From assembly GCA_037128175.1 (NCBI GenBank), contig JBAXWY010000037.1:1-27261 (forward strand): DNA of 27,261 bases. Direction: 5' to 3'. Positions 708 through 25,748 of the stretch are shown piece after piece. The number at the start of each line of letters is the position of its first letter. Position 1 is the first letter of the stretch. Source of the DNA: Methanothrix sp. (GTDB taxonomy: Archaea > Halobacteriota > Methanosarcinia > Methanotrichales > Methanotrichaceae). The notes beneath the pieces were generated by a model. The model was given only the letters and a program-made list of their open reading frames with translations. It searched no databases and had not been told where the DNA came from. The position numbers and the translations under genes were made by a program.

Positions 708-2027
708 TTATCCCGCTCCGCCCACCGTCGCCTCTGCCACCAGGAGGTGCGGCGATCCGTCGCTCACGGGCACGAGCTGTCCTGCTTTCCCGCAGCGTCC
801 GCTGTTGAACTTGAGGTCGTTCCCCACCGCCCGGACATGCAGCAAAGTTTCCAGAATCTTGCCGGACAGGGACACGTCCCGCAAAAGCCGCGTCTTCTCG
901 CCCTTTTCCACCAGGTAGCCTCTCTTGGCATTGAACTGGAAGACGCCCTCGCCCGTGCTCACCTGGCCGCCCCGGCTGCCGCACAGGTAAACTCCGTCTC
1001 CTAGCTCGCTCAGGATCTCTTCCAATTTCCAATCTCCGTTGGCGATGTAGGTATTGCTCATGCGCACCACCGGCCGGTCCAGGCCTTCGGCGCGGGCATT
1101 ACGCGGCACACCGCCCAGCCGAGCTGCCGTCTCGCGAGAATTGAGATACGACTTAAGGATGCCCTTCTCCACCAAAACCGTTTCCTGGGCCAGGCTTCCC
1201 TCATCGTCAAAAGAGTAGTATCCGTTTTGCATCAAACTGGGATCGTCCTTGACCGTCACCAACTCTGAGCCGATCTTCTGGCCCAGCATTCCTTCCAGAC
1301 AGGAGTCGCCCTCTAAAATGATGTCTCCCTCAGTGGCATGGCCTACCGCCTCATGAACAAATACTCCGGCCAGCTCCTGATCTAGGATCACGGGATAGGT
1401 TCCACCCTTGGGCATACTCGCGTCGAGAAGTGCCACCGCCGTCTCGCCAACCCCTCTGGCCAGAGCAATGGGGTCTTCCCGGTCAAAGAGCTCCAGGCCT
1501 CCTACGCCCGACCGGCCCTCTCCGTCCGTCTGGTAGAGCCCGTTTCTGTGGGCCACGGCGCTGATGACAAAGCCCATGCGCGTCGTCTTTGCCTCCAGAT
1601 CCAGGCCCTCCGAGCTCTCGTAATGCGTGGTAAAATCCATCTCTGCGTAGACGGCCTGGGTGGAGGAGACGCCCTTAACTTTAGCTGCGTCTTCAATCTC
1701 TCGTAGCAGGACCACCTTCTCCTCCAGGGAAAGGTTCTTGGGATCTTTTTTAACTGGAACCACAACGCTTCTACCCACCGGAGCCTCTGCCAGCACGAGG
1801 TTCTCGCGCCGGTCGATCTTCCGGGCGATGCGTTTGGCCAGATCGATCTCTTCCCCAAGGTTTGCGACATTGTCCGTGGTCACAAAACCCCACGCTCCCT
1901 CGTGAAGAGCTCGTACCGCCGCACCCTGGAAGGGAGCCTCTGCTATCTCTTCCAGCTTGCCGTTGTCCAGGACAATCCTGGTCCTACTGCCACGAAGGAT
2001 GCGAATGTCGTAGAACTCAGGCGCCAT
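708..2027 (-). CDS. tldD: TldD/PmbA-family metalloprotease, TldD (catalytic) type
   Basis: HEAVGH zinc motif, FDDEG, RMSNTYI and the C-terminal CGKAGQLVPVSDGSPH motif with the ligand Cys. Confidence 0.92.
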   Translation of the reverse strand: MAPEFYDIRILRGSRTRIVLDNGKLEEIAEAPFQGAAVRALHEGAWGFVTTDNVANLGEEIDLAKRIARKIDRRENLVLAEAPVGRSVVVPVKKDPKNLSLEEKVVLLREIEDAAKVKGVSSTQAVYAEMDFTTHYESSEGLDLEAKTTRMGFVISAVAHRNGLYQTDGEGRSGVGGLELFDREDPIALARGVGETAVALLDASMPKGGTYPVILDQELAGVFVHEAVGHATEGDIILEGDSCLEGMLGQKIGSELVTVKDDPSLMQNGYYSFDDEGSLAQETVLVEKGILKSYLNSRETAARLGGVPRNARAEGLDRPVVRMSNTYIANGDWKLEEILSELGDGVYLCGSRGGQVSTGEGVFQFNAKRGYLVEKGEKTRLLRDVSLSGKILETLLHVRAVGNDLKFNSGRCGKAGQLVPVSDGSPHLLVAEATVGGAG

Positions 2028-2033
2028 TTGGTT

Positions 2034-4007
2034 TCAGATGCTCCTGCTGGGGATGGTAATGGTCTCCGGCAGGATGATGCCGATCTTCTTTTCGGTGGCA
2101 AACCTCTTCAGCTTCTCGATCAGCCGGTTCCTCTGCCCGCCCATGGCATACTCGAAGACCTCGCTCATATTGGAGACGGGAATGATCTCGATCATGCCCT
2201 TGGTGGCTTCGTCGATCAGTACATCGCCCATATTGGATTTGGGTATGAGCACCGTCTTGATGCCGGCTTTCGCTGCGGCCTCGATCTTCTGCGTCACGCC
2301 TCCCACGGGCATGACATCTCCCCGCACAGACAGAGAACCGGTCATGGCCACCGACTGCTTGACTGGCACGCCTTCCAGGGCGGATATGACTGCTGTGGCA
2401 ATGGAGATAGATGCGCTGTCGCCCTCTACGCCTTCGTAGGTGCCGATGAACTGAATGTGCACATCCTTGTTGGTTATGTCCTCACCCAGGAACTTCTTAA
2501 TGAGCACGGAGACGTTGGTGACAGCTTCTCTGGCAATCTCCTGCAATTTACCTGTGGCTATGATCTTGCCCTCATCCTTGGACTGCGCCGGCGTGATCTC
2601 GGCCATGATGGGCAGCACTATTCCCGAGTCGCCCATAACGGCCAGACCATTGACTCTTCCCACTTCGTCCCCGGAGGAGTGGAACATGCTGTAATCCTTG
2701 CGGCGCTCCATGTAGCGGTCGGCAAGCTGCTGCTCCACGGACCTTGCCATCTTCTTGGCCTCTATGACGTGATCCACTTCGGTCAGGTTTGCACCATTGG
2801 CACGGGCTACGTCCCCGGATACTCTGATCAGGCCGCCCAGGTCTCGCAGCATTAGTGTGAGATGGCCCTTTCGCCCTGATCTTCTCTTGGCTTCCCGCAT
2901 GATCTCCGAGACCGCATCCCTGCTGAAGTGCGGTATCTTGCCGTCTCTTACAATCTCCTGGGCCACGAATCTGATGAGCTTGTTTCTGTTCTCCAGGGTG
3001 TCGTCCATGCTGTCTCTCATGTAGACTTCATATCCGTAGCCCTTGATGCGTGACCTCAAGGCGGGATGCATTCCCTGCACGGCATCCAAATTTCCCGCCA
3101 GGATCATGATGAAGCTGCAGGGCACTGGCTCCGTTCTGACCAGTGCGCCGGAGCTTCTCTCGCTCTGACCGGTAATGGGATACTCACCCTCCTGCAAAGC
3201 CGTAAGCAGGCTTTGCTGTGACTCAGGACGTAGAGTGTTCACCTCATCTATGAAGAGAACTCCCTTGTGGGCCTTGTGAATGGCTCCGCATTCCACCCGC
3301 TCATGGGATGGCGTCTCCAGGCCTCCGGATTGGAAAGGATCATGGCGGACGTCTCCAAGAAGGGCGCCGGCGTGTGCCCCGGTGGCATCGACATAAGGTG
3401 CCTTCTTCTTATTGTTGTTGTCCACCAGGAGCTTGGGAACCATGGCGTCCTCTTTGGGCAACATATAACGCAGTGAAAGGAATATAAGCGCTGCTGCAAT
3501 GATCCCGAAGAGGAGCTGTCCCGTATAATAGGCATATACTATTAAGGCCATTACTATGAGCATTAAGAACATATTGCGCGTCTGGACCTTCTTTCTGGCC
3601 TCCATCTTCTGGGCATCGACTATCTGCTTGCCTCTGCCGGCAGGTACGATGCGAACGCGCGGAGTGTTGTTATCCTCTGGATTGGCATAGACCAGAACAT
3701 CCTGTAGCTCTTCCACGGGGAGTAGCTCGCTCATGGCCTTGCCGAGCATGGATTTTCCTGTTCCCGGCGATCCGATGAGCATGACATGGCGTCTCTGGCG
3801 TGCCGCCTTTTTGATCACTTCCACGGCTTCATCCTGGCCGATCACATGATCTATGAGGCTCTCAGGCACGGTTATGCTGCTGGTATCGTTGAAATCAATG
3901 TCCCCAAGCAGCTCTTTCGACTCGTCTTCAGAAGTCAATTTTTCGGCCCTCATATCGTCTTTTAATCCTTCTTGACTATATATCTGGTGCTTTGTATCCA
4001 TACTCAT
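2034..4007 (-). CDS. lonB: Archaeal membrane-anchored ATP-dependent protease LonB
   Basis: Walker A GSPGTGKS, two-TM hydrophobic insert in the ATPase domain, LLGDVRHDPFQSGGL, Walker B LFIDE, catalytic Ser in EGDSASI and Lys in VTQKIEAA. Confidence 0.96.
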   Translation of the reverse strand: MSMDTKHQIYSQEGLKDDMRAEKLTSEDESKELLGDIDFNDTSSITVPESLIDHVIGQDEAVEVIKKAARQRRHVMLIGSPGTGKSMLGKAMSELLPVEELQDVLVYANPEDNNTPRVRIVPAGRGKQIVDAQKMEARKKVQTRNMFLMLIVMALIVYAYYTGQLLFGIIAAALIFLSLRYMLPKEDAMVPKLLVDNNNKKKAPYVDATGAHAGALLGDVRHDPFQSGGLETPSHERVECGAIHKAHKGVLFIDEVNTLRPESQQSLLTALQEGEYPITGQSERSSGALVRTEPVPCSFIMILAGNLDAVQGMHPALRSRIKGYGYEVYMRDSMDDTLENRNKLIRFVAQEIVRDGKIPHFSRDAVSEIMREAKRRSGRKGHLTLMLRDLGGLIRVSGDVARANGANLTEVDHVIEAKKMARSVEQQLADRYMERRKDYSMFHSSGDEVGRVNGLAVMGDSGIVLPIMAEITPAQSKDEGKIIATGKLQEIAREAVTNVSVLIKKFLGEDITNKDVHIQFIGTYEGVEGDSASISIATAVISALEGVPVKQSVAMTGSLSVRGDVMPVGGVTQKIEAAAKAGIKTVLIPKSNMGDVLIDEATKGMIEIIPVSNMSEVFEYAMGGQRNRLIEKLKRFATEKKIGIILPETITIPSRSI

Positions 4008-4016
4008 TTTGGTCCT

Positions 4017-6230
4017 TTAGGCTTTGAAATCTTGGATCATTTTAAGGTATTCTTCCCGCATGCCTTTGGACAGATGGGGCTTAATAAGCTCATGCGCTCT
4101 TTGGAAATGCTCTCGTGTTACCAGTATCCTATCAATGATCAATTCTTCTCTTTTCATACCGATCGTTATATGCTCTTTTAAAGCAAGCATACCAGCTTCC
4201 CGGCAGAGCATCTCTAAATCTGCGCCGGAAAAGTTCTCTGTCATCTCGGCCAGCCACAGGGCAATGGCCCCGGAGGCGGCCATGCGGGAGAGATAAATCT
4301 CCAGTATTCTCTTTCTTGCCTGCATGTCCGGCATGGGAATATAAATCAAACGATCGAATCTGCCGGGACGGAGCATTGAACTGTCCAAGAGGTCCGGCCG
4401 GTTGGTAGCCGCTACTACTACCACATCTTTAAGCTCTACCAGCCCATCCAACTCGGTTAGGAATTGGCTGACTACTCGTTCTGTCACGTTCGAATCGGGC
4501 CCGCTGCCCCGGCTCGGAACTATGGAGTCGATCTCATCGAAGAATACCAAGGCAGGAGCCGCCTGGCGGGCTTTGCGAAATATCTCTCTTACGGCACGCT
4601 CCGATTCGCCCACCCATTTGCTGAGCAGTTCCGGGCCTTTGACGCTGATGAAGTTCAAATTACTCTCCGTAGCTAGCGCTCTTACCAGGAGGGTCTTGCC
4701 TGTTCCCGGCAGGCCGTAAAGAAGGATGCCACGCGGGGGCCGAACGCCTACGGCTGCGAAGGCTTCCGGATACTTGAGCGGCCACTCCACGGCCTCGATG
4801 AGTGACTGCTTGACTTCCTCAAGGCCCCCCACTTCATCCCAGTGTACCTCCGCTACCTCTACGAATACCTCTCTCATGGCGGAGGGCTCAATTTTCTTCA
4901 AAGCCTCTTTGAAGTCCTCTTTGGTAACCCGAAGACTCTCCACGATCTCGGCTGGTATATCCTCGCTCACATCCAGGTCGGGAAGCGCCCTCTCCAGTGT
5001 TCGCATGGCCGCCTCTTTGCAGAGAGCATAAAGGTCCGCTCCTACAAAGCCGTGCGTGGCATCTGCGATCTCTTTCAAGTCCAGGGACACGTCGAGAGGC
5101 ATGCCTCTGGTATGAACATACAGCACCTCGAGCCGACCGGTTTTACTGGGAATGCCTATCTCAATCTCCCGATCGAAGCGTCCGCCCCGACGGATGGCAG
5201 GATCAAGGGCATTGGGCCTATTGGTGGCTGCAATTACTATTACCTCTCCCCGGGAGGAAAGTCCGTCCATAAGGGCCAGGAGCTGAGCCACCACACGCCT
5301 TTCCAGGTCGCCGGACACCTCCTCGCGTTTGGGTGCGATGGAGTCGATCTCATCGATGAAGATGATGGAGGGAGCGGCTTTAGCGGCCTCCTCGAAGATC
5401 TGGCGCAGCCGCTGCTCGCTTTCTCCATAAAACTTGGAGACGATCTCTGGACCGGAGATGGATATGAAGTTGGCGTCGGTCTCGCTGGCCACGGCCCTGG
5501 CGATGAGCGTCTTTCCCGTTCCGGGTGGTCCATAGAGCAGCACCCCGCGAGGTGGATTGATGCCCAGGCGAGAGAAAAGCTCCGGATGACGCAGTGGAAC
5601 TTCAATCATCTCCCTGATCTCTCTGATCTCGCGGGAAAGGCCGCCAATGTCCTCGTAGGAGATATCCCGCACTTGCAGTGCCAGCTCTTCTAAAGTCTCT
5701 CTGGTGATGCTGATGATAGTCTCGGAAGTTACGATTACCGCACCGGCAGGCATTGTGCTGACCACGGCCAGGTTGAGGCTGCTATTGATCATCTCCACGC
5801 GCAGCATTTCACCCTTGACAACCGCCCTTCCTTGTAGCATACGAAGCAAGTACTGCGGCCCGCCCATGAGCCGGATCTGGCGCGTAGGAGCGACAACGAT
5901 CTTTCGGGCCGGTCTTGCCTCGGCCCGGGTGACGACAACTTTGCTGTCTATCCCAGCACTCAGGTTGGCGCGGGTATTCCCGTCAATTCTGATGAGATCC
6001 TGGGGATCATCAGGGTTTCCGGGCCAGGTGATGGCGTAGACCTTATCTTTTCCTTTGATCTCCACCACACCCCCGTTTTCCAGGGATAGGGAGGTCAATG
6101 CAGCCGCTCCAATCCTGGCCACGCCCTTTCCTGCATCTTTGTGATAGGCTTCAGCAACCCGAAGTTGTAGAGAGACAACCTTTTCCGGCCCACCTACGAC
6201 AGGCTCTATTTCCGTCCCTTCTCTCTCCAT
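4017..6230 (-). CDS. cdc48: CDC48/VCP (VAT) family AAA+ ATPase
   Basis: N-domain plus two AAA modules ([20 protein letters not shown] and [19 protein letters not shown]). Start placed at ATG 6230, which overlaps the upstream stop as TAATG. The ORF is open to 6245. Confidence 0.95.
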
Positions 6231-6859
6231 TATCTGATGCTCCATTCCTGATCTAACAAATGCACAGCTCCACGCTCTTCCAGCCTTTTTAGCCGGTCTA
6301 TTACCACAATCTCGGGAGCTTCCAGCCTCATGGCCAGATGCGTTGCATCAGCATCGCCGGAGAGGAGTGCCGTCAGGATCTCCGCCTCCAGCTGGTTTTC
6401 TGCATAGCTTCTGGCCGTACTGCAAGCTATATGTTTGATCTCCATTTCTCGAGATTCGATCCGGTCCAGGAGAGCGCGCAGTTCAAGCCTCTTTTCCTCC
6501 AGGGTTGAGAGCTCGTCGCGTAAAAGCTTCATGTCCGGGACCAATCCGTTATCTTCTACTTTTGGTACGTCCTCGGAGAGAAAGGCTCTTACGCCGTAAG
6601 AATGAGGCGAGACCGCCACCTCCAGAACTATCTTTCGGACTATGCGAAAATACTTTCTTCTTCCCGTGTCCTGATAGCATTCCACCAGGCCGGCTCTCTC
6701 CAGCATCACCAGATGATCGATGACGGCCTTTGGTCCGACATCCAGTCGCTTGGCCATCTCATTGAAGTAAAAAGGGCGAAACGAGAGGAGTTGAAGTATG
6801 CGCCTCCTATTTTCGTTCCCCAGGATATCTAAAAGCTCAACCGGATCCAATATCATCAC
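6230..6859 (-). CDS. ArsR-family regulator of the archaeal heat-shock regulator type (Phr/HSR1-like, COG1777)
   Basis: [21 protein letters not shown]....[18 protein letters not shown] and RRKYF match the Phr-type N-terminal wHTH, followed by a coiled coil and a second HTH-like C-terminal segment. First gene upstream of cdc48. Confidence 0.85.
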
Positions 6860-11440: not shown

Positions 11441-12379
11441 ATGGCTTTAGTCATAGGTCACCGGGGGGCTCTTGCCCTGGCCGCTGAAAACACCCTGGAA
11501 GGCATCAGGGCTGCCGCTTTGTGCAGAGCCGACTATGTGGAGCTGGATGTAAGGCTCTCTCGCGACGGCGAACTTATCTTGATGCATGATGAAAGGGTGG
11601 ACAGAACCACCAACGGCAAAGGCCTGGTTGAAGAATTCAGCCTGGAAGAACTAAAAGCCCTGCAGTTGAGAGACCACACCGGCCGGTGCATGGAAAGCCA
11701 TAGAATCGCAACGCTAAAAGAGGCCATATCTCTGGCCGGGGAGCTTGACCTGGGCCTGGTAGTGGAGATGAAAGAAGAGGGCCTGGAAGGACTGGTGGCC
11801 GAAGCTCTCTCTGGCAAAAAATGCATTGTGACCTCCTTTTACCATAGCAGCCTAAGCGAATTATCGGACATTTCGGATCTGTTGACGGGCATCATCATCT
11901 CTTCGCTGCCCATAAATCCTGTGCAATTAGCCACTTGGGCAAAAGCCTCGGCCATTTTTCCGAAGCGAGTCAATGCCCGGCTCTTCAAGGAGGCGCATCA
12001 GCGGGGAATAGCTGTCTTTCCCTGGACCGTTAATAGCAAAGAAGAGGCGAGTTGGCTCCTCCGCTTGGGGGCCGATGGACTGGTAACGGATGACCCGTGC
12101 CTGATTCGAGAGGTAGCCGACCAGCCGGTGCAGGCCACAGGCAAAGAAAATTGCCAGTATTATCCCTGCCACCACTTTCCTGATCAGGACTGCACGCACT
12201 GCTTTTGCCCCTTATATCCATGCAAGGATGAAGAGCTTGGCAAGTATGTGCGGACCAAAAAAGGAAAGAGGTTTTGGACATGCATCAACTGCCGGCTGGT
12301 GCACCGCCCCCAAATGGCCGCATATCTGTCGGAGCACCCTCAAGCGACAACAAGCGAGCTAAAAGCTCTGCAAGACTGA
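11441..12379 (+). CDS. Glycerophosphodiester phosphodiesterase family protein with C-terminal cysteine-rich small domain
   Basis: GHRGA...ENT, VELDV.LSRDG.LILMHD..VDRTT, WTVN, DGLVTDDP, then CQYYPCH...DCTHCFCPLYPC...WTCINCRLVH. Confidence 0.9.
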   Translation: MALVIGHRGALALAAENTLEGIRAAALCRADYVELDVRLSRDGELILMHDERVDRTTNGKGLVEEFSLEELKALQLRDHTGRCMESHRIATLKEAISLAGELDLGLVVEMKEEGLEGLVAEALSGKKCIVTSFYHSSLSELSDISDLLTGIIISSLPINPVQLATWAKASAIFPKRVNARLFKEAHQRGIAVFPWTVNSKEEASWLLRLGADGLVTDDPCLIREVADQPVQATGKENCQYYPCHHFPDQDCTHCFCPLYPCKDEELGKYVRTKKGKRFWTCINCRLVHRPQMAAYLSEHPQATTSELKALQD

Positions 12380-12477
12380 AAAACGATATTATTATCCATT
12401 GGGATTTATCCGTTGCCAGGAAAATGGCCTTTACCGACGGAAAGCTTTATGGATACCTGAGGGATAATGCAAACCGC

Positions 12478-12951
12478 ATGAAACATATTATACTTGTGCT
12501 ATTTGCTCTGATAGCTCTAGGTGGGATGTTGCCCGCTACAATAGCCGCACCTGTAGGGCCAACTTTATTGGATAACCCAGCCGCTATGCCGGAACCGGCT
12601 CAATCCGAACTGGTAACCACACCATCTATGGCCGCTTTCCTCAATGATAGCTGGACGCCGAGCACCTTTGTCGCTCCCCTGGCAAGCCAGGCTACTGGGG
12701 TGCAGAGGAACATGACCCGCAACAACACTACCATGAATAGCTCTAACTATGCCATTTATGATTTCTTGAATGATAATTACACCTCCCCGTCTCCCGCGTC
12801 ACCTGTTTACTCTGCCAGCGCAGCCGGAAAGGATAAGACGGTAGCCTGGACAGGCGAGAGCATCTATCAGTTCTTGAATGATGCATGGACTCCTACTACA
12901 CCGATCCAGACATACCCGCAGTCTGTCTTCAAACTGCATCAGATGAATTAA
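12478..12951 (+). CDS. Secreted hypothetical protein with three FLND repeats
   Basis: Signal peptide MKHIILVLFALIALGGMLPATIA. A promoter-like AAAGCTTTAT at 12441-12450 supports ATG 12478 over the longer ORF start 12274. Confidence 0.75.
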   Translation: MKHIILVLFALIALGGMLPATIAAPVGPTLLDNPAAMPEPAQSELVTTPSMAAFLNDSWTPSTFVAPLASQATGVQRNMTRNNTTMNSSNYAIYDFLNDNYTSPSPASPVYSASAAGKDKTVAWTGESIYQFLNDAWTPTTPIQTYPQSVFKLHQMN

Positions 12952-13058: not shown

Positions 13059-14807
13059 CTATGCTTTTTTGCCCGTGTATCTCTTGAGATAAAGGCTCAC
13101 CACATCATAAGGAATGGTATGCTTCTCCAGCCGGAGATGATTTGCCAGAGCCTCCGCTTCTTTGCTGTAAGAGCCGGCCACTTTTTCGGCGTATTTTATG
13201 CCGTCAGCAGTGAGCATGTATTCGTATCGCTGACGCCACTGGTTATTCTGTTCGTAGTGCCGCTCGTCCTGATAGATCATACCATTGGCAACCAGGATCT
13301 GAATGTCTTCGAAGAGCCTCTCGCTGTAGGGGAAGCCATAGTCGGAGTGAAAAGAGTAGTCGAAAAGGCTAGAGAGGCCGGTTGGTCCCAGATCCTTAAT
13401 CCTGGCCACCGTGCGGTAGATCCAGGTTATGTTTCTGATCCGGGGAACGAGGATCTTCTGGCCGTAAGTCTCGGAGAGCATCTGGTGCAGGGTATAAAAT
13501 AGCAGCAGTAGCCCGTCAATGGGAAGGTAGCTCTCGTCGCGAATAAAGTTGAGGAGCCGCTCTGCCTGGCTCCAGACCTCCTCTAATGATATCTCCGGCC
13601 TATCGTCCGAGAAGAAGGAGATAGCGATCTGGCGGGTCAATGATTTGACCAGGCCCGCTGCTAAGGCCGACTCGTCATAGAAAAATCCATTCGCCTCTGT
13701 TCTCATGGACCTTGGCACTCCGCTGCCCACAGTGACATCCACCAATGCACCATATTTTTTGCCGAGGGCATCCTCGAAGAGCTTTCTCATGCGTCCATGA
13801 CGGGAAACCGTGGAGAGAGCCATTCTGATATCAGGCGACAGAGACCTGTGGTCAAACCTGGCTGCCAGTGGAAATTCTTGGCCATATTTTATGCGCGTCA
13901 AGAGATCGCGGGAGGTGTTGTCTCCCCTCTGCCGGATGAAATCCAGAAGATCGGGGTCCGTATACTCTTGAAAGAATAGAACAATGCTGCTTCTGGCCTC
14001 ATCTGCATCCATCCGGCTCAAGGCGCGCTCCAATGCGGCCAGCAGCATGGCCCGGATGGACTGAACGGCTGGATGGTAGATGAGTGCATTATAGTGATGG
14101 GCCCTGGCAATGAGCATCGACTCGGCCGCGGTCTGGGACATCTCGGCCCGATAGTCGCCATTCCCCGCCAGCACAATGCGACCATTGCTGATGGTCAGAG
14201 CCTGCAGTATCTGATCGGTATCCACGAGCCCTAAGGAAACGCCCGAGTGGTGCGAATCGCGCAAAAGAAAGTCAATTCTGTCTGCATCCAGATCGCCCAC
14301 GATGATCTGGCCCAGGGGTGGCCTGGCCCCGGAAGCTATGTCTGCGATCTCTCGAAATAATTCGTCGGCATCACAAAAATCCCTCTCTGCGACCCGTAAG
14401 GCCTCCTCTTTGAAGGGATGGGCCGCTATGATCTGGCGGGTGAACTCTTCATGTCTGGAAACACGCCGCCCCTCCAATTTGGGCTGTATGTCCGGGTTTC
14501 GGCTAAGAACGCCCTCCACGGCATGGGAGAGGGCCGAGTGCCCCAGATCATGCAAAAGCCCGGCCAGGCGCACTTTTCGCACCTCATCCCGGCAGAGGCC
14601 CAGGTGCTCGGCCATCCGCCCGGCCATGTACATGGTTCCCAGTGAATGCTCGAACCTGCTATGGCTCGCTCCTGGATAGACCGTCTCCACCAGACCCAGC
14701 TGCTTAATCCCCCTCAGTCGCTGCACCGGTCGGGACAGGATGAGATGCCGCTCCAGCTCATCTATCTGGATAGCTCCATGAACTGGATCGCGAATAGTGC
14801 CTGGCAT
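13059..14807 (-). CDS. HD-domain phosphohydrolase (COG1078, dNTPase-like) with extra C-terminal winged-helix-like domain
   Basis: IRDPVHG.I, QRLRGIKQLG, YPGASHSRFEHSLG, LLHDLGH, HEEFT, DLDADRIDFLLRDS, Y.HP.V. About 160 additional C-terminal residues follow. Confidence 0.9.
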   Translation of the reverse strand: MPGTIRDPVHGAIQIDELERHLILSRPVQRLRGIKQLGLVETVYPGASHSRFEHSLGTMYMAGRMAEHLGLCRDEVRKVRLAGLLHDLGHSALSHAVEGVLSRNPDIQPKLEGRRVSRHEEFTRQIIAAHPFKEEALRVAERDFCDADELFREIADIASGARPPLGQIIVGDLDADRIDFLLRDSHHSGVSLGLVDTDQILQALTISNGRIVLAGNGDYRAEMSQTAAESMLIARAHHYNALIYHPAVQSIRAMLLAALERALSRMDADEARSSIVLFFQEYTDPDLLDFIRQRGDNTSRDLLTRIKYGQEFPLAARFDHRSLSPDIRMALSTVSRHGRMRKLFEDALGKKYGALVDVTVGSGVPRSMRTEANGFFYDESALAAGLVKSLTRQIAISFFSDDRPEISLEEVWSQAERLLNFIRDESYLPIDGLLLLFYTLHQMLSETYGQKILVPRIRNITWIYRTVARIKDLGPTGLSSLFDYSFHSDYGFPYSERLFEDIQILVANGMIYQDERHYEQNNQWRQRYEYMLTADGIKYAEKVAGSYSKEAEALANHLRLEKHTIPYDVVSLYLKRYTGKKA

Positions 14808-14809
14808 AC

Positions 14810-15205
14810 CTATTTTGATGCCAGCTTTATTATGGCGGCAGCCAGGTCTCCTTTAGCCTCCTGCAGGGCAGCTTTTGCCTCCGGCAAATTCGCGCCGGTT
14901 TGAGCGGCTACGAGCATCACGTCCGAGTCCGGAATCTCAATGGGGGGCTCTTCTGCCGCTTCCCTGGCAGCAGACGGCGCGCGCTCAGTTGAGTCGCCCG
15001 ATATCTGAAAGCTTCGTGTGCCGTGGGAATCCATGATCGCGACAGAGGGATTGGTTATAACAATCTCCTTGTCGGGCATGCGAATGATAACCTCGGAAAC
15101 ATTCTCAAGCTCATCGATATCAATGCCCATGTTCTTCAACATGCCTTTCATCTTCTTGGGGCTCAAGCCGCCCCTTCCGCCTAATCCTCCAAGTCCTGGA
15201 AACAT
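14810..15205 (-). CDS. nac: Archaeal nascent polypeptide-associated complex protein (aeNAC)
   Basis: MFPG...SPKKMKGMLKNMGIDIDEL..V.EVII NAC domain and UBA-like tail (DVMLVAAQTG...AL.EAKGDLAAAI). GGTGA RBS precedes ATG 15205. Confidence 0.93.
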   Translation of the reverse strand: MFPGLGGLGGRGGLSPKKMKGMLKNMGIDIDELENVSEVIIRMPDKEIVITNPSVAIMDSHGTRSFQISGDSTERAPSAAREAAEEPPIEIPDSDVMLVAAQTGANLPEAKAALQEAKGDLAAAIIKLASK

Positions 15206-15338: not shown

Positions 15339-16082
15339 ATGGAAATGAAGCTAAGCTGGGAAGCGCGCCTTGGTATTTTCTTGATACTGCTATCTTTGAT
15401 CATCTACGGGATAAAATACCTGATTATTGGTGATGCTGAAAATATCTTCAACTATCTCTTTAATTCTCTGGGCTATCTACCCTTAAATGTACTGCTTGTA
15501 ACTCTAATTCTCAATAGGCTGCTTGCCAATAGATCCAAGCAGAATAAACTGGAGAAGATGAACATAGTAGTAGGAGTTTTTTTTAGCGAGGTTGGCACCT
15601 GGCTTTTGACCTATCTTTCCGATAATGATCCGAATCTCTGCCGGCTGAGCGGGGACCTGGTTAAAATCGACCAGTGGTCCGACGAGGAATTTATCAGGGT
15701 GCAGGACAAATTCAAGAATCACAGTTACAGCATCGACATCAAGAAGATCGATGTCAAGGCACTCTCCACCTATTTGAGCACTAAGCGGAGTTTTTCCCTA
15801 AGACTGCTGGAAAACCCTCTATTGCTGGAGAATGAGAGCTTTACCAATCTGCTTCGGGCTGTATTCCACCTGACAGAGGAACTGGAGCACCGCCGAGACA
15901 TTCAGGAGCGGCCGGATTCCGATTACCAGCATCTCGCAGGCGACATTGAAAGGGCGTATTTCCTGCTGGTCATGGAGTGGATGACATACATGAGATATCT
16001 CAATTCGAACTACCCCTATCTATTCTCCCTGGCTATGAGAACGAATCCTTTCGATGAGAATGCCTGCGTGGTGGTGAAGTAG
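15339..16082 (+). CDS. Hypothetical membrane protein (two N-terminal TMs plus helical soluble domain)
   Basis: 247 aa ORF with no longer competing ORF and two hydrophobic helices. No function recognised. Confidence 0.8.
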   Translation: MEMKLSWEARLGIFLILLSLIIYGIKYLIIGDAENIFNYLFNSLGYLPLNVLLVTLILNRLLANRSKQNKLEKMNIVVGVFFSEVGTWLLTYLSDNDPNLCRLSGDLVKIDQWSDEEFIRVQDKFKNHSYSIDIKKIDVKALSTYLSTKRSFSLRLLENPLLLENESFTNLLRAVFHLTEELEHRRDIQERPDSDYQHLAGDIERAYFLLVMEWMTYMRYLNSNYPYLFSLAMRTNPFDENACVVVK

Positions 16083-16107: not shown

Positions 16108-16383
16108 TCAAGTCTTAGCCAGCAAAATCTCTATCGAAGACACATTCACCGTCTTGCCGTCCTCACTCTGGATGGCCTCCGTGCCGATGGTTATGTTTTT
16201 GACAATGATATTAAGCATGAATCGATTCCTGGTGATTTCAGCCGCATCCACTGCCCGGGAGATGGCACGTCCCCTGGCCTTCAGCGTTACTGTGGAGACC
16301 GGCTTGTTGAACTGGGTCATTACGGCTAGAACATAGTTCATGACTGGCTTGTCACCGACGAAAATTACGGCATTGTCTTCCAT
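16108..16383 (-). CDS. albA: DNA/RNA-binding protein Alba
   Basis: [41 protein letters not shown]. Start at ATG 16383 because the longer ORF overlaps rlmE. Confidence 0.95.
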
Positions 16384-16420
16384 AGCATCGCCCTTCCCTC
16401 TGTTTTTCTTGGGCAGGTTA

Positions 16421-17191
16421 TTAACCCTTTCTCTCCAGTATTTCGGCGAAGGCAAAATTGGGCTTGACCGCATCGATCTTGATCCGCAGCTTCTCGCCCT
16501 GCTGCGCTTTACGAACAATGATCGCGAAGCCTTCCACCATTGCAACACCATCTCCCGATTTGCCCAAATACTCGATCTGGACATCCAGCACATCGCCTCT
16601 CCTCACCGGGCCCGTGAGCATCTTTTTGGCCACGACGTAGGTCTCTGCGCTCTCTTTTCTGGATGCAAGCGGTGAATGAGCGTGAACGGATGAGAACTCC
16701 TTTCGCACCTCGTTTAAATAGCCCTGGAACAGGTCGCCCTGGAAGACCTTGACCACGAAATTTCCCTGGGGCTTCAATAGCTTCTTGGCCATTTTAAGCG
16801 CCGAGCTGCACAAATCGACGGAGACGGCATGGTCCCTGTGCCAGACACCGGTAAGGTTTGGCGCGGCGTCGCATATCACCACATCCGCATCCCCACCTAA
16901 AGCCTCCTTCACCAGATCTACGGTGCTCTCTCTGGTTATGTCCGCCTGGAAAGTTTTCACGCCGGGGATGGGCACGATGTCCTCCAGGTCCACGCCTATG
17001 ATCTTGCCCCCGGAAAGCTTGGCCGCCACCTGCAGCCAGCCGCCGGGCGCGGCCCCCAGGTCAACCACATTGTCTCCTCGCTTGATGATGTTAAACTTCT
17101 CATTTACCTGCAGCAGCTTATAGGCAGAGCGGGCTCTATAGCCCTCTTCCTTTGCCAGCCGGTAGTAGTAATCTTTTTGATCTCGGGCCAT
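16421..17191 (-). CDS. rlmE: 23S rRNA (uridine2552-2'-O)-methyltransferase RlmE/FtsJ with C-terminal TRAM domain
   Basis: [45 protein letters not shown], then TRAM (G.SGDGVA.VEGF.I.V...FAFAE). Confidence 0.95.
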
Positions 17192-23955: not shown

Positions 23956-24657
23956 TTAATATATAGGACCGAGAATGTTAATTCCATTATCATTGATGGT
24001 AAGCTGATGCTTTTCCATGGCGTGTTTGGTGGCTCTCATCTTCAAGATCTGAATGTATCTCTTCACGCCGCCTTTCCCTTCAATCATGCCAAGCTCAATT
24101 GTTCCGTCCGCCAGGAAGTGCTCTATTTGATGGAATTGGGAGAATTGTCCTGAGATTCTCGATTGGGCAGACTCCATAATCAAAAAAGAGGTAAGTCCTT
24201 CATCACGAAGATGCGAAAAGAAATTATAAATTTTATTCCTCATATTGCCATTCTCAGAGATGGAATAGAGGGCATTGAGAGAATCAAGCGCAAATAGCGT
24301 CAGGTTGTCATACTTTTCTTTGTAAGAATCTATAACTTCCTCTGTAGTCTTGATGAGATCCAGGTCACTGTCCATCCACTCCAGCCGCATATCCCGGTAA
24401 TCGAATATATGCAAACCACTCTCTTCTTTAATCCCCAGACTATTCATATTTCTTAGGTGGCTTTCCACATTTTGCTCTAAAGTTACATAGAGGCCATGCT
24501 CATCATTGGCCGCTATATAATTTGTCATCATGCTGAATACCAGGCCCGATTTCAGGGTACCTTCCGCACCGGTCACAAGGATTACTGAACCCTTCGGGAT
24601 TTCATCAAACAGAATTTTATCCAGGCCGTTGATGGTGTTCTTCAGCATCAAGCTCAT
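23956..24657 (-). CDS. Single-domain KaiC/RAD55-like ATPase
   Basis: TINGLDKIL...IPKGSVILVTGAEGTLKS, LYVTLEQ, FALDSL, LADGTIEL, RYIQILKMRATKH. Confidence 0.9.
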   Translation of the reverse strand: MSLMLKNTINGLDKILFDEIPKGSVILVTGAEGTLKSGLVFSMMTNYIAANDEHGLYVTLEQNVESHLRNMNSLGIKEESGLHIFDYRDMRLEWMDSDLDLIKTTEEVIDSYKEKYDNLTLFALDSLNALYSISENGNMRNKIYNFFSHLRDEGLTSFLIMESAQSRISGQFSQFHQIEHFLADGTIELGMIEGKGGVKRYIQILKMRATKHAMEKHQLTINDNGINILGPIY

Positions 24658-25025
24658 CTCCTGAGTAATAAAGATACCTGCTCCAGGGCTTTGGCAAAAT
24701 CCTCAACATCCTTTTCAGCGACTTTTCTGCCACTGAGTGTAAGGCTATATTTTTTGCTTCTCATATCACCCTTGCTGTATTCGGCATGGAGCAAACCCTC
24801 ACCCTCAAGAGTATATAAAACAGGATAAACCGTTCCCTGGCTGAGAAAAACATCGCACCTTGAGAATATTTCCTTTATAAGGTCATAACCGCACATTTGT
24901 TTGTCTAGGAGGGAAGACATCATAAAAACTTCTCGATTCGTCTTGATGATTCTATCAATAAACTTTTTGCAATTATCCTCCGAGAATTCACAGAGGTCAG
25001 CGACATTCTCGACCGATGTCTTCAT
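24654..25025 (-). CDS. PadR-family transcriptional regulator
   Basis: MCGYDLIKEI....LSQGTVYPVLYTLE.EGLL...KKYSLT.SG. Confidence 0.9.
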   Translation of the reverse strand: MKTSVENVADLCEFSEDNCKKFIDRIIKTNREVFMMSSLLDKQMCGYDLIKEIFSRCDVFLSQGTVYPVLYTLEGEGLLHAEYSKGDMRSKKYSLTLSGRKVAEKDVEDFAKALEQVSLLLRR

Positions 25026-25091
25026 GACTAAAGATTACTCCAATGGTATATACCTGTGCAAACTATAAGAATATTTTCCTGCACTTACACT

Positions 25092-25748
25092 TTAGTTTTC
25101 GTCCTCATCCGGGTATTGCCGTAGCTCGAACATGTTTCGTTCCATCAATGCCAGTTCTTTCTTCTCGATTCCTGCGGGGTCTACCGGCAAGATTAGAATG
25201 GCCCTTTGCAATATTATCCATTCTTGTATATCTCTCAGAAGCCTCAATACGGGTGCTGAGCCATTTTCGAATATCAGATGCTCTATTCCGTCAAGAAGAA
25301 TTACCGGGTTTTTGCTTTGCTTTAAGAATTTGGTGGTTATATCAGCTATTACCTCCAGAGCTATGGGGTTGATGCTCTGGGGTCCATGATTGCTTATCCA
25401 GAAGATGGGGGTGGTCTGCAAAGCGTACCTCAGGCGGATATCCTGGGGCGAATGCATAGTAAAGCATAATCCTTGGGCCCTGGAATGCTTGCATACTTTA
25501 CAGGTGCAGGGCAACTCGCATCTTTCACAACCGATGCTCTCGCAGGGGAAAGAATCGAGATAATCACAATCGTTGCATCTTCCCTTTACCAAAGAAACAA
25601 AGAGCTCAAAGCTAAACTCTGCCTTCGGTTCTTTGACCAGGTAGCTGGAGCCTTTCGTCAAATTACGGCTTACATGGCTATTTAAGGGTTCAGTCGCCGG
25701 CACAACGGCAGGCGCTATCTTTAGCCTGGCGAGAATATTTTTGATCAT
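25092..25748 (-). CDS. DUF835-like (inactive KaiC-like fold) protein with 8-Cys insert
   Basis: SYLVKE, GLCFT..P, IFWIS, I.P..L, VILLDGIEHLIFENG, LILPVDP, ELALMER. Confidence 0.8.
   Translation of the reverse strand: MIKNILARLKIAPAVVPATEPLNSHVSRNLTKGSSYLVKEPKAEFSFELFVSLVKGRCNDCDYLDSFPCESIGCERCELPCTCKVCKHSRAQGLCFTMHSPQDIRLRYALQTTPIFWISNHGPQSINPIALEVIADITTKFLKQSKNPVILLDGIEHLIFENGSAPVLRLLRDIQEWIILQRAILILPVDPAGIEKKELALMERNMFELRQYPDEDEN

Follow-up and report, generated by a model that had tools for sequence, protein, structure and literature searches.

What might a winged-helix domain be doing at the end of a SAMHD1-type HD enzyme in a methanogen, when its nearest solved relatives have no counterpart of it? 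Enzymes of the SAMHD1 type, acting on deoxynucleoside triphosphates (dNTPs), govern the supply of DNA precursors and the restriction of viruses in organisms that range from bacteria to humans. The question is raised by a 27,261-nucleotide (nt) stretch of Methanothrix sp. DNA (contig JBAXWY010000037.1; the window is the whole of this stretch), where an open reading frame (ORF) at 13059..14807 on the reverse strand was singled out, in an original prediction made from the letters alone, as an HD dNTPase-like enzyme fused to a YwgA/SocA(Panacea)-like winged-helix domain. The fusion is real and is conserved at a housekeeping locus, and the core of the added domain appears from sequence comparison to be specifically similar to the YwgA family and, through intermediates, to SocA/Panacea. 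Our preferred reading, which we place about midway between belief and disbelief, is that of a dNTPase with a cis-acting, protein-binding regulatory domain that would gate HD activity or assembly.

The HD module and its C-terminal extension

The ORF is genuine, a single frame of 582 amino acids (aa) by the ORF list and its translation, with an ATG start and its stop codon at 13059-13061, and the string first quoted from it (FDYSFHSDYGFPYSERLFEDIQILVANGMIYQ...RQRYEYMLTADG) lies at residues 482-536. Protein searches return full-length Methanothrix orthologues at 70-96% identity, and the closest genome locus is that of a Methanothrix metagenome-assembled genome (MAG) at 97%. The orthologue records are called 'HD domain-containing protein [Methanothrix sp.]' or 'HD superfamily phosphohydrolase', and since public records name only the HD part, the C-terminal domain is currently unannotated. 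An AlphaFold2 (AF2) model of the whole chain, built on a 20-sequence alignment, has a mean predicted local distance difference test (pLDDT) of 88.5 and a predicted template modelling score (pTM) of 0.87.

The catalytic module of SAMHD1/EF1143 type, an HD domain with its HD-associated lobe, occupies residues 1-404 (13596..14807, reverse strand) by Pfam, PDB sequence matches and Foldseek. Pfam HD (PF01966) is matched at residues 51-150 (14358..14657, same strand) with E 1.4e-12 and 48.3 bits against a cut-off of 22, and HD_assoc_2 (PF19276) at residues 195-307 with 32.2 bits against 23.1. In a Methanoperedens orthologue HD_assoc_2 spans profile positions 1-211 of 222 and ends at residue 426 of 605, and therefore the module should end near residue 404 here. 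The HD motifs RFEHS (H54), LLHDLGH (H86, D87, H90), LSH (H95) and RHEEF (H119) align to 2hek and 2q14, as does the motif DADRIDFLLRD of residues 174-184 (14256..14288, reverse strand), carrying a D176 that we take, by SAMHD1/EF1143 numbering, to be the last metal-binding Asp of the H..HD..D set. The metal-ligand and catalytic roles of H54, H86-D87, D176, H90, H95 and H119 are presumed from work on SAMHD1 and EF1143. Sequence matches in the PDB run from Aquifex 2hek (E 5e-34), Bacteroides 2q14 and Enterococcus EF1143 2o6i (1e-23) to fungal SAMHD1 9mr6 and many human SAMHD1 entries near 1e-19, and every one of them is confined to residues 4-290. By Foldseek the best PDB matches are EF1143 with bound dNTPs (3irh, E 1.9e-16, target template modelling score, TM, 0.66) and many SAMHD1 chains, with a target TM of 0.80 for 2hek and a TM normalised to the query of about 0.5 for the solved HD enzymes.

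COG1078 'YdhJ' is described as the conserved-domain profile that detects the HD domain of SAMHD1 (PMC7854603). Its sequence marks the N-terminal part as an HD phosphohydrolase of COG1078/SAMHD1 type whose metal ligands are intact, much as the original prediction of a complete COG1078-type module ahead of the extra domain had it, and the Pfam, PDB, Foldseek and motif evidence makes it a probable dNTP triphosphohydrolase. EF1143 and SAMHD1 resemble residues 1-404 in the fold of the HD domain and its associated region and in the His/Asp motifs for metal binding and catalysis, whereas neither they nor 2hek and 2q14 have anything that corresponds to residues 405-582, and SAMHD1 carries an N-terminal SAM domain instead of a C-terminal addition.

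The addition amounts to some 178 residues (405-582; window 13062-13595), so that the extra region had been rightly seen and its size, given as about 160 residues, set somewhat too low. Modelled alone on 17 sequences (AF2, pLDDT 89.7) it consists of helices 408-425 and 429-444, a small sheet, helices 460-473 and 496-507, a beta hairpin at 511-532 and more helices, and is confidently predicted to be a helical hairpin followed by a winged helix. The two long helices, within residues 405-454 (13446..13595, reverse strand), join the HD module to the winged helix in the AF2 model and are family-specific, lying outside the confident hhalign alignments to YwgA and to the Panacea-family protein P0353 introduced below. 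The YwgA/Panacea-like core at residues 482-559 (13131..13364, reverse strand), delimited by hhalign, BLASTP and their controls, is ordered as a helix region F.Y.FH..YGFPYSE.LFEDIQ.LV..G, a long beta-hairpin wing ending in YEYMLT..G and then further helices. It is followed by a conserved basic tail KH.IPYD..S...KRY at residues 560-582 (13062..13130, reverse strand; net charge +3), of which I565 and D568 are invariant in the family alignment.

This domain is a genuine and important part of the protein. When genomes were scanned with the full-length alignment, the peptide patterns picked as the top three of the entire protein family by conservation all fell within it ([ED][RK]LFEDIQ, YEY[MVS]LT[ASR][ED]G and F[HQP]x[DER][YF]GF[PA]YS). 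Identity to the Methanoperedens proteins declines in both halves together (47-51% for the HD part, 49-54% for the C-terminal part), and the ratio of nonsynonymous to synonymous divergence, dN/dS, is 0.09-0.20 for the C-terminal part against 0.08-0.17 for the HD part in the 7 of 9 pairs with unsaturated dS. Both halves are under purifying selection.

Relatives of the C-terminal domain

Direct searches with the domain return little. Residues 405-582 match no Pfam family, and elsewhere only MarR_EPS in NCBIfam (E 0.024-0.03) and LmuC in PADLOC (E 0.0027), the latter set aside as generic winged-helix similarity. PDB sequence searches, single and by profile, leave the C-terminal part without a match at E<=10, comparison with the ESM Atlas gives scores of 0.80, which is the noise level, and phmmer against 1.84 billion representatives finds 16 matches at E<=1e-3, all of them members or fragments of the fused family and none a bacterial relative.

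The way to YwgA led through a gene pair. A tblastn of the HD part against a plasmid collection that includes chromosome-sized records reached a Priestia megaterium locus where, 24 nt behind an HD gene of 435 codons and in the same orientation, comes a gene of 169 codons annotated as a 'hypothetical protein' (P0202), with pta, lipoate ligase, rsfA, a DUF1450 gene, a tautomerase, a site-2 protease and ywhD as flanking genes. We take this locus to be the counterpart of the ywf-ywh region of B. subtilis. A search with P0202 gathers 2084 relatives, named 'YwgA family protein' by NCBI and UniRef. In a single BLASTP comparison the C-terminal part of the window protein matches P0202 at E 0.008, with 57 residues aligned at 32% identity. 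By hhalign, whose percentages here and below are probabilities, the C-terminal family profile reaches 90.4% against P0202, and the C-terminal family (17 sequences) reaches 93.5% against the YwgA family (20 sequences), with E 2.2e-7 over 70 columns at 30% identity. Both reversed alignments gave 0.1% against YwgA, the best of 30 column shuffles 2.2% (E 0.022), and among unrelated winged-helix controls the PadR protein of the window reached 6.3% while an ArsR, a MarR and a TrmB stayed at or below 0.4%. A YwgA hidden Markov model (HMM) run over 8453 stop-to-stop ORFs of at least 50 aa from 88 loci picked out YwgA itself and 22 others, and all 22 are fused HD proteins matched in their C-terminal region (E 3e-4 to 0.05). 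JGI names point the same way in part, with 9 of 69 C-terminal fragments called 'uncharacterized protein YwgA' and 19 of 69 'hypothetical protein'. The YwgA-like pattern on which the original prediction turned thus goes beyond chance, and the core appears, above controls, specifically similar to the YwgA family.

The likeness has definite bounds. The motif core of YwgA, Y.FH..GPYSEEL...I..L...G.....Y.Y.LTE.G, corresponds to residues 482-559, and the confident alignment is limited to YwgA positions 37-110, about 70 of some 170 columns, rather than extending over its whole length. Confidence in the match to the archaeal domain does not extend to the N-terminal 'KKLQK' helix of YwgA or to its C-terminal half; a permissive alignment (mact 0.01) sets helix 460-473 opposite the KKLQK helix with zero confidence. 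The archaeal domain also has the extra two-helix linker, and is part of a fused chain where YwgA is a stand-alone protein of 166-170 aa; in P. megaterium YwgA has as its partner the same kind of HD enzyme, and in the same order, HD first. Searches with YwgA itself gave only noise against the PDB (a Rad50 coiled coil at E 0.04) and nothing better than E 0.7 in the phage collection.

Kinship to SocA/Panacea, the second half of the predicted identity, comes by way of intermediates. The Pfam model SocA_Panacea (PF13274, DUF4065) misses the archaeal domain, and at E<=10 it matches 0 of 20 YwgA proteins. However, a tblastn of YwgA against plasmids found one further record, a Haloarcula plasmid DUF4065 gene (E 5e-4, 33% over residues 18-125), and its 148-aa protein, P0353, is a certified member of the Pfam family with 29.8 bits against a gathering score of 25.7. 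P0353 aligns by hhalign to the YwgA profile at 96.9% (E 1.7e-10) and to the C-terminal family profile at 93.7% (E 1.9e-7, 37% identity over 49 columns), and by BLASTP to the window sequence at E 1e-5; 30 shuffles of P0353 stayed at or below 2.7% against the C-terminal family profile and 3.1% against the YwgA profile. A superfamily core common to SocA/Panacea is therefore supported by these profile alignments, whereas membership of the Pfam family is not. On its plasmid, in Haloarcula sp. JP-L23 (L089 2205-3390), the P0353 gene has its start overlapped by 11 nt by the gene of a TrmB family regulator.

A third relative is DarG. In NCBIfam, 20 of 20 YwgA proteins match the DarG model over its C-terminal half (positions 175-333 of 338), with a best E of 1.5e-7 and scores far below the equivalog cut-off, and the same 20 of 20 weakly match Pfam Replic_Relax (best E 2.3e-5); these two sets of matches suggest that YwgA, the DarG C-terminal domain and Panacea may form one winged-helix superfamily. 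The link from DarG to the archaeal domain is transitive only, via YwgA, and DarG differs in carrying a macrodomain and in having an ADP-ribosyltransferase as its partner, not an HD enzyme. What it offers is a working analogy, in that its C-terminal domain neutralises a partner enzyme by binding: the C-terminal half of DarG is described as neutralising DarT by sequestering it (PMC7003065), and PanA antitoxins as forming complexes with their toxins (PMC8832971).

A winged helix may of course bind nucleic acid, and the domain could tether the enzyme to DNA or RNA or repress its own operon. The better Foldseek matches of the isolated domain, almost all to winged-helix proteins, are to DNA-binding ones (Pex/PadR 2dql at E 4.8e-3, RTP 1f4k, LmrR and MarR types, with TFIIE also found), the best viral match is an SSV4 protein (E 1.3e-2), and the weak MarR_EPS match, the weak RTP and PadR matches of P0353 and the description of SAMHD1-family enzymes as oligonucleotide binders (PMC7854603) would fit the same picture. 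Yet no fold match reaches E 1e-3 in the PDB or BFVD, hhalign against the window PadR, ArsR and the other MarR and TrmB proteins gives at most 6.3%, and the specific relatives, PanA and by way of YwgA the DarG C-terminal domain, are described as protein binders. The third helix, which takes the place of a 'recognition' helix, is acidic, with a net charge of -2 in this protein and of -3 in YwgA, as is the domain overall (pI, the isoelectric point, 5.98), and this too argues against a classic DNA-binding role. On balance we consider a nucleic-acid-binding function unlikely, though it keeps a real share of the probability. Comparison of the C-terminal region by fold and by profile, which had been proposed as a check on its identity, came out in two ways, with hhalign linking it to YwgA and to P0353 and Foldseek giving nothing at E<=1e-3.

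Fused and split forms in their genomic setting

The fused protein has at least 181 relatives, from Methanosarcinales, in 185,579 species genomes, and among the 80 of these listed with taxonomy and completeness 67 belong to Methanothrix, Methanotrichaceae or unclassified Methanosarcinales and 13 are of Methanoperedens type, all being full-length or interrupted by contig ends. Cluster names extend the family to Methanosarcinaceae and Methanolobus. A stand-alone archaeal form of the domain was sought by a profile search among proteins of 61-326 aa and none was convincing, the 10 inspected of 69 matches being fused proteins that are truncated or called from an internal start. On long contigs of a few MAGs (L056 7216-7746; P0141, P0147, P0179) the domain does stand as a separate short ORF or gene call. 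These open with sequence of the fused chain and look like frameshifts or internal-start calls, not natural split genes.

The split forms found are bacterial. Besides the P. megaterium pair, B. subtilis YwfO and YwgA are Swiss-Prot entries of 433 and 166 residues, and by gene name we presume that ywfO and ywgA are the split form there. A ywgA-like ORF is present in one of the eight Bacillota HD loci examined and so the pairing is not obligatory in Bacillota; the predicted nearness of ywgA to a ywfO-type HD gene therefore holds for P. megaterium and not as a rule. For Panacea proper, supplementary file 1 of Kurata et al. 2022 lists five Clostridia genomes (Ammonifex, Desulfofundulus and three Caldicellulosiruptor) with an HD(YdhJ) gene upstream of a PanA gene at gaps of -17 to +23 nt, the HD(YdhJ) proteins forming putative toxin class T34 and the pairs being marked 'notest'; the main text of that paper has no mention of an HD partner, a fusion or a winged helix. 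The proposal of a Rosetta-stone fusion holds up on three counts: the domain identities, the P. megaterium ywgA and the catalogued HD(YdhJ)+Panacea pairs. What was already known is the HD enzyme family and an HD+Panacea gene pair that had been catalogued, never tested or discussed. The archaeal HD + YwgA/Panacea-like fusion is new in that no description of it was found in the literature searched, and 'winged' and 'HTH' are absent from the main text of a 2026 survey of dGTPase domain fusions (PMC13519002).

The split forms also bear on whether the domain is a structural appendage, replacing or extending the C-terminal lobe that holds the SAMHD1/EF1143 tetramer together and involving no switch. 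The whole-chain pTM suggests a rigid single body, the two halves are equally conserved and SAMHD1 activity is described as needing tetramerisation (PMC3624423), all of which an oligomerisation role would accommodate. But the same domain occurs as a separate gene behind HD genes, so that a dissociable partner fits better than a structural lobe, and its relatives act as neutralisers. We regard a purely structural role as quite unlikely.

In the window the fused gene lies directly behind nac, encoding the nascent polypeptide-associated complex protein (14810..15205, reverse strand; Pfam NAC E 2.8e-15, TIGR00264 E 3.4e-32), which probably begins at the ATG at 15205, with GGTGAT ahead of it. The nac stop TAG at 14810-14812 is followed by 'gt' and then by the HD gene ATG at 14807, which is the 2-nt gap that had been claimed. 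Upstream and on the same strand nac is present in 60 of the 61 Methanotrichaceae-type loci with upstream DNA, the exception being L039, and in none of 11 Methanoperedens loci. The nac-HD gap is 2-4 nt in 13 loci and roughly 11-188 nt in the others, the larger values arising because starts were extrapolated, with one locus unmeasurable. Co-transcription of nac and the HD gene is likely in the window genome, and the idea of expression with a housekeeping gene is plausible to that extent and not universal; the adjacency is a lineage habit, not part of a functional unit. In one Methanoperedens MAG locus (L074) the place of nac in Methanothrix, immediately upstream of the fused gene, is taken by a toxin-antitoxin (TA)-like pair of DUF433 and DUF5615/PIN-like genes (5293-5920), and the neighbours there also include genes for an acylphosphatase and a class I lysyl-tRNA synthetase.

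The other window genes form an ordinary archaeal housekeeping set, encoding TldD/PmbA, LonB and Cdc48, a cation efflux protein, enzymes of SepSecS/SepCysS type and of GDPD type, Alba, an FtsJ/TRAM methyltransferase, two-component proteins, UvrB, Ogg and KaiC-like proteins; genes of mobile elements or of defence were not seen in the window, and it holds no tRNA genes. Most Methanotrichaceae loci preserve the gene order nac-HD-...-GDPD-SepCysS, the divergence of the fused gene tracks that of its neighbours, and its inheritance looks vertical. Several of these genes have features of their own. The GDPD protein (11441-12379, forward strand) has a fused C-terminal cysteine-rich 'zf-like' domain (PF04071, E 6e-25), and its gene adjoins the SepSecS/SepCysS-type gene in most Methanotrichaceae loci. 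Two forward-strand ORFs without a Pfam match flank the nac-HD pair, one at 12274-12951 that diverges fast (27-89% identity across loci) and one at 15339-16082 found only in the closest relatives. The 161-aa ORF at 16108-16593 (reverse strand) has its Alba domain at residues 76-137 only, and the Alba gene probably starts at an internal ATG, because orthologue matches span only 16108-16380. The protein-quality-control genes for TldD/PmbA, LonB and Cdc48 (708-6859, reverse strand) stand behind an ArsR/Cmi2-type double winged-helix regulator, and at 23956-25748 (reverse strand) a DUF835 gene, a PadR-type regulator and a KaiC-like ATPase form a cluster adjoining a histidine kinase.

This setting weighs on the other role that had been offered for the fusion, that of a single-chain TA or antiviral effector in which a nucleotide-depleting HD toxin would be restrained by a fused Panacea-like antitoxin until infection. 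Panacea domains are described as antitoxins for many toxin types (PMC8832971), the T34 pairs are catalogued as a candidate TA class, and dNTP-degrading HD enzymes are reported to act in defence (10.1101/2021.04.26.441389, PMC13519002). PADLOC run on the fused protein gives a weak dGTPase match (E 3.2e-4, 18 bits) besides LmuC, neither of them convincing as a defence model. The neighbours, however, are housekeeping genes (nac, Alba, FtsJ/TRAM methyltransferase, SepCysS-type, GDPD, Cdc48, LonB and UvrB among them), and with such a context a mobile TA or defence role seems unlikely; the conserved order, the divergence in step with the neighbours and the purifying selection on both halves point the same way. 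A tblastn of the C-terminal domain against the plasmid and phage collections had no match. In contrast to a mobile two-gene module of SocA/Panacea with its partner, the fused protein is one archaeal polypeptide at a conserved housekeeping locus. A single-chain TA or antiviral effector is accordingly disfavoured, and very unlikely in our estimate.

A regulatory reading and its implications

In the reading that we prefer, of a dNTPase under regulation in cis, the C-terminal YwgA/Panacea-like domain would dock on the HD module of its own chain and, while docked, would gate HD activity or the assembly of the module into an active oligomer, so that dNTP hydrolysis may be restrained until a signal frees the HD module. 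Five things lead us to infer such gating: in the split forms the HD gene comes first and the small-protein gene second, PanA and the DarG C-terminal domain bind and neutralise their partners, the acidity of the third helix and of the domain speaks against classic DNA reading, the high pTM of the whole-chain model suggests a fixed packing of the two parts, and the housekeeping context makes a mobile TA or defence role unlikely. The analysis establishes what the two domains are, that they are fused, that the fusion is conserved and where it lies in the genome; activity as a dNTPase, docking and regulation of the HD module by the C-terminal domain belong to the proposal.

A number of observations weigh against this reading or against the identities on which it draws. 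For docking on the HD core the support is a single pTM value from AF2; when B. subtilis YwfO and YwgA were modelled as a complex (Swiss-Prot sequences, without alignments) the score was 0.03 against a mark of 0.34, which counts neither way. The aligned core is short, at 49-70 columns, and the alignments are of low diversity (effective number of sequences, Neff, 1.6-2.4). The YwgA HMM run on the window places the fused ORF first among 262 ORFs, but weakly, at E 0.037. Of 7 members of the C-terminal family, PF13274 matches 0 at E<=10, and the window protein not at all; the NCBIfam DarG model likewise matches 0 of 7. The fold matches are weak, none better than E 4.8e-3, and are to DNA-binding winged-helix proteins. 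The literature found on YwgA and on YwfO gives the function of neither, and to our knowledge not all COG1078 enzymes have been shown to be dNTPases.

Even so, the fusion supplies a concrete candidate partner for SAMHD1-type dNTPases in the form of a YwgA/Panacea-like domain, and with it a first hypothesis for the uncharacterised ywfO and ywgA of B. subtilis and for an untested class of predicted TA pairs. It also presents an 'antitoxin' domain as a fixed part of a conserved methanogen housekeeping gene, which bears on how TA modules may originate in the normal regulation of enzymes or be drawn into it. A bolder version, speculative and in our view rather unlikely, is that Panacea/YwgA-type 'antitoxin' domains are built-in housekeeping brakes on SAMHD1-like dNTPases, the archaeal protein being a self-neutralised, single-chain switch of enzyme and antitoxin in the core genome, co-transcribed with nac, whose dNTP-depleting activity would be set free by a signal, replication stress or infection by a virus for example, and the ywfO-ywgA and T34 pairs being its two-gene version. 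If that were true, the origin of a hyperpromiscuous antitoxin domain would be tied to the control of a cellular enzyme.

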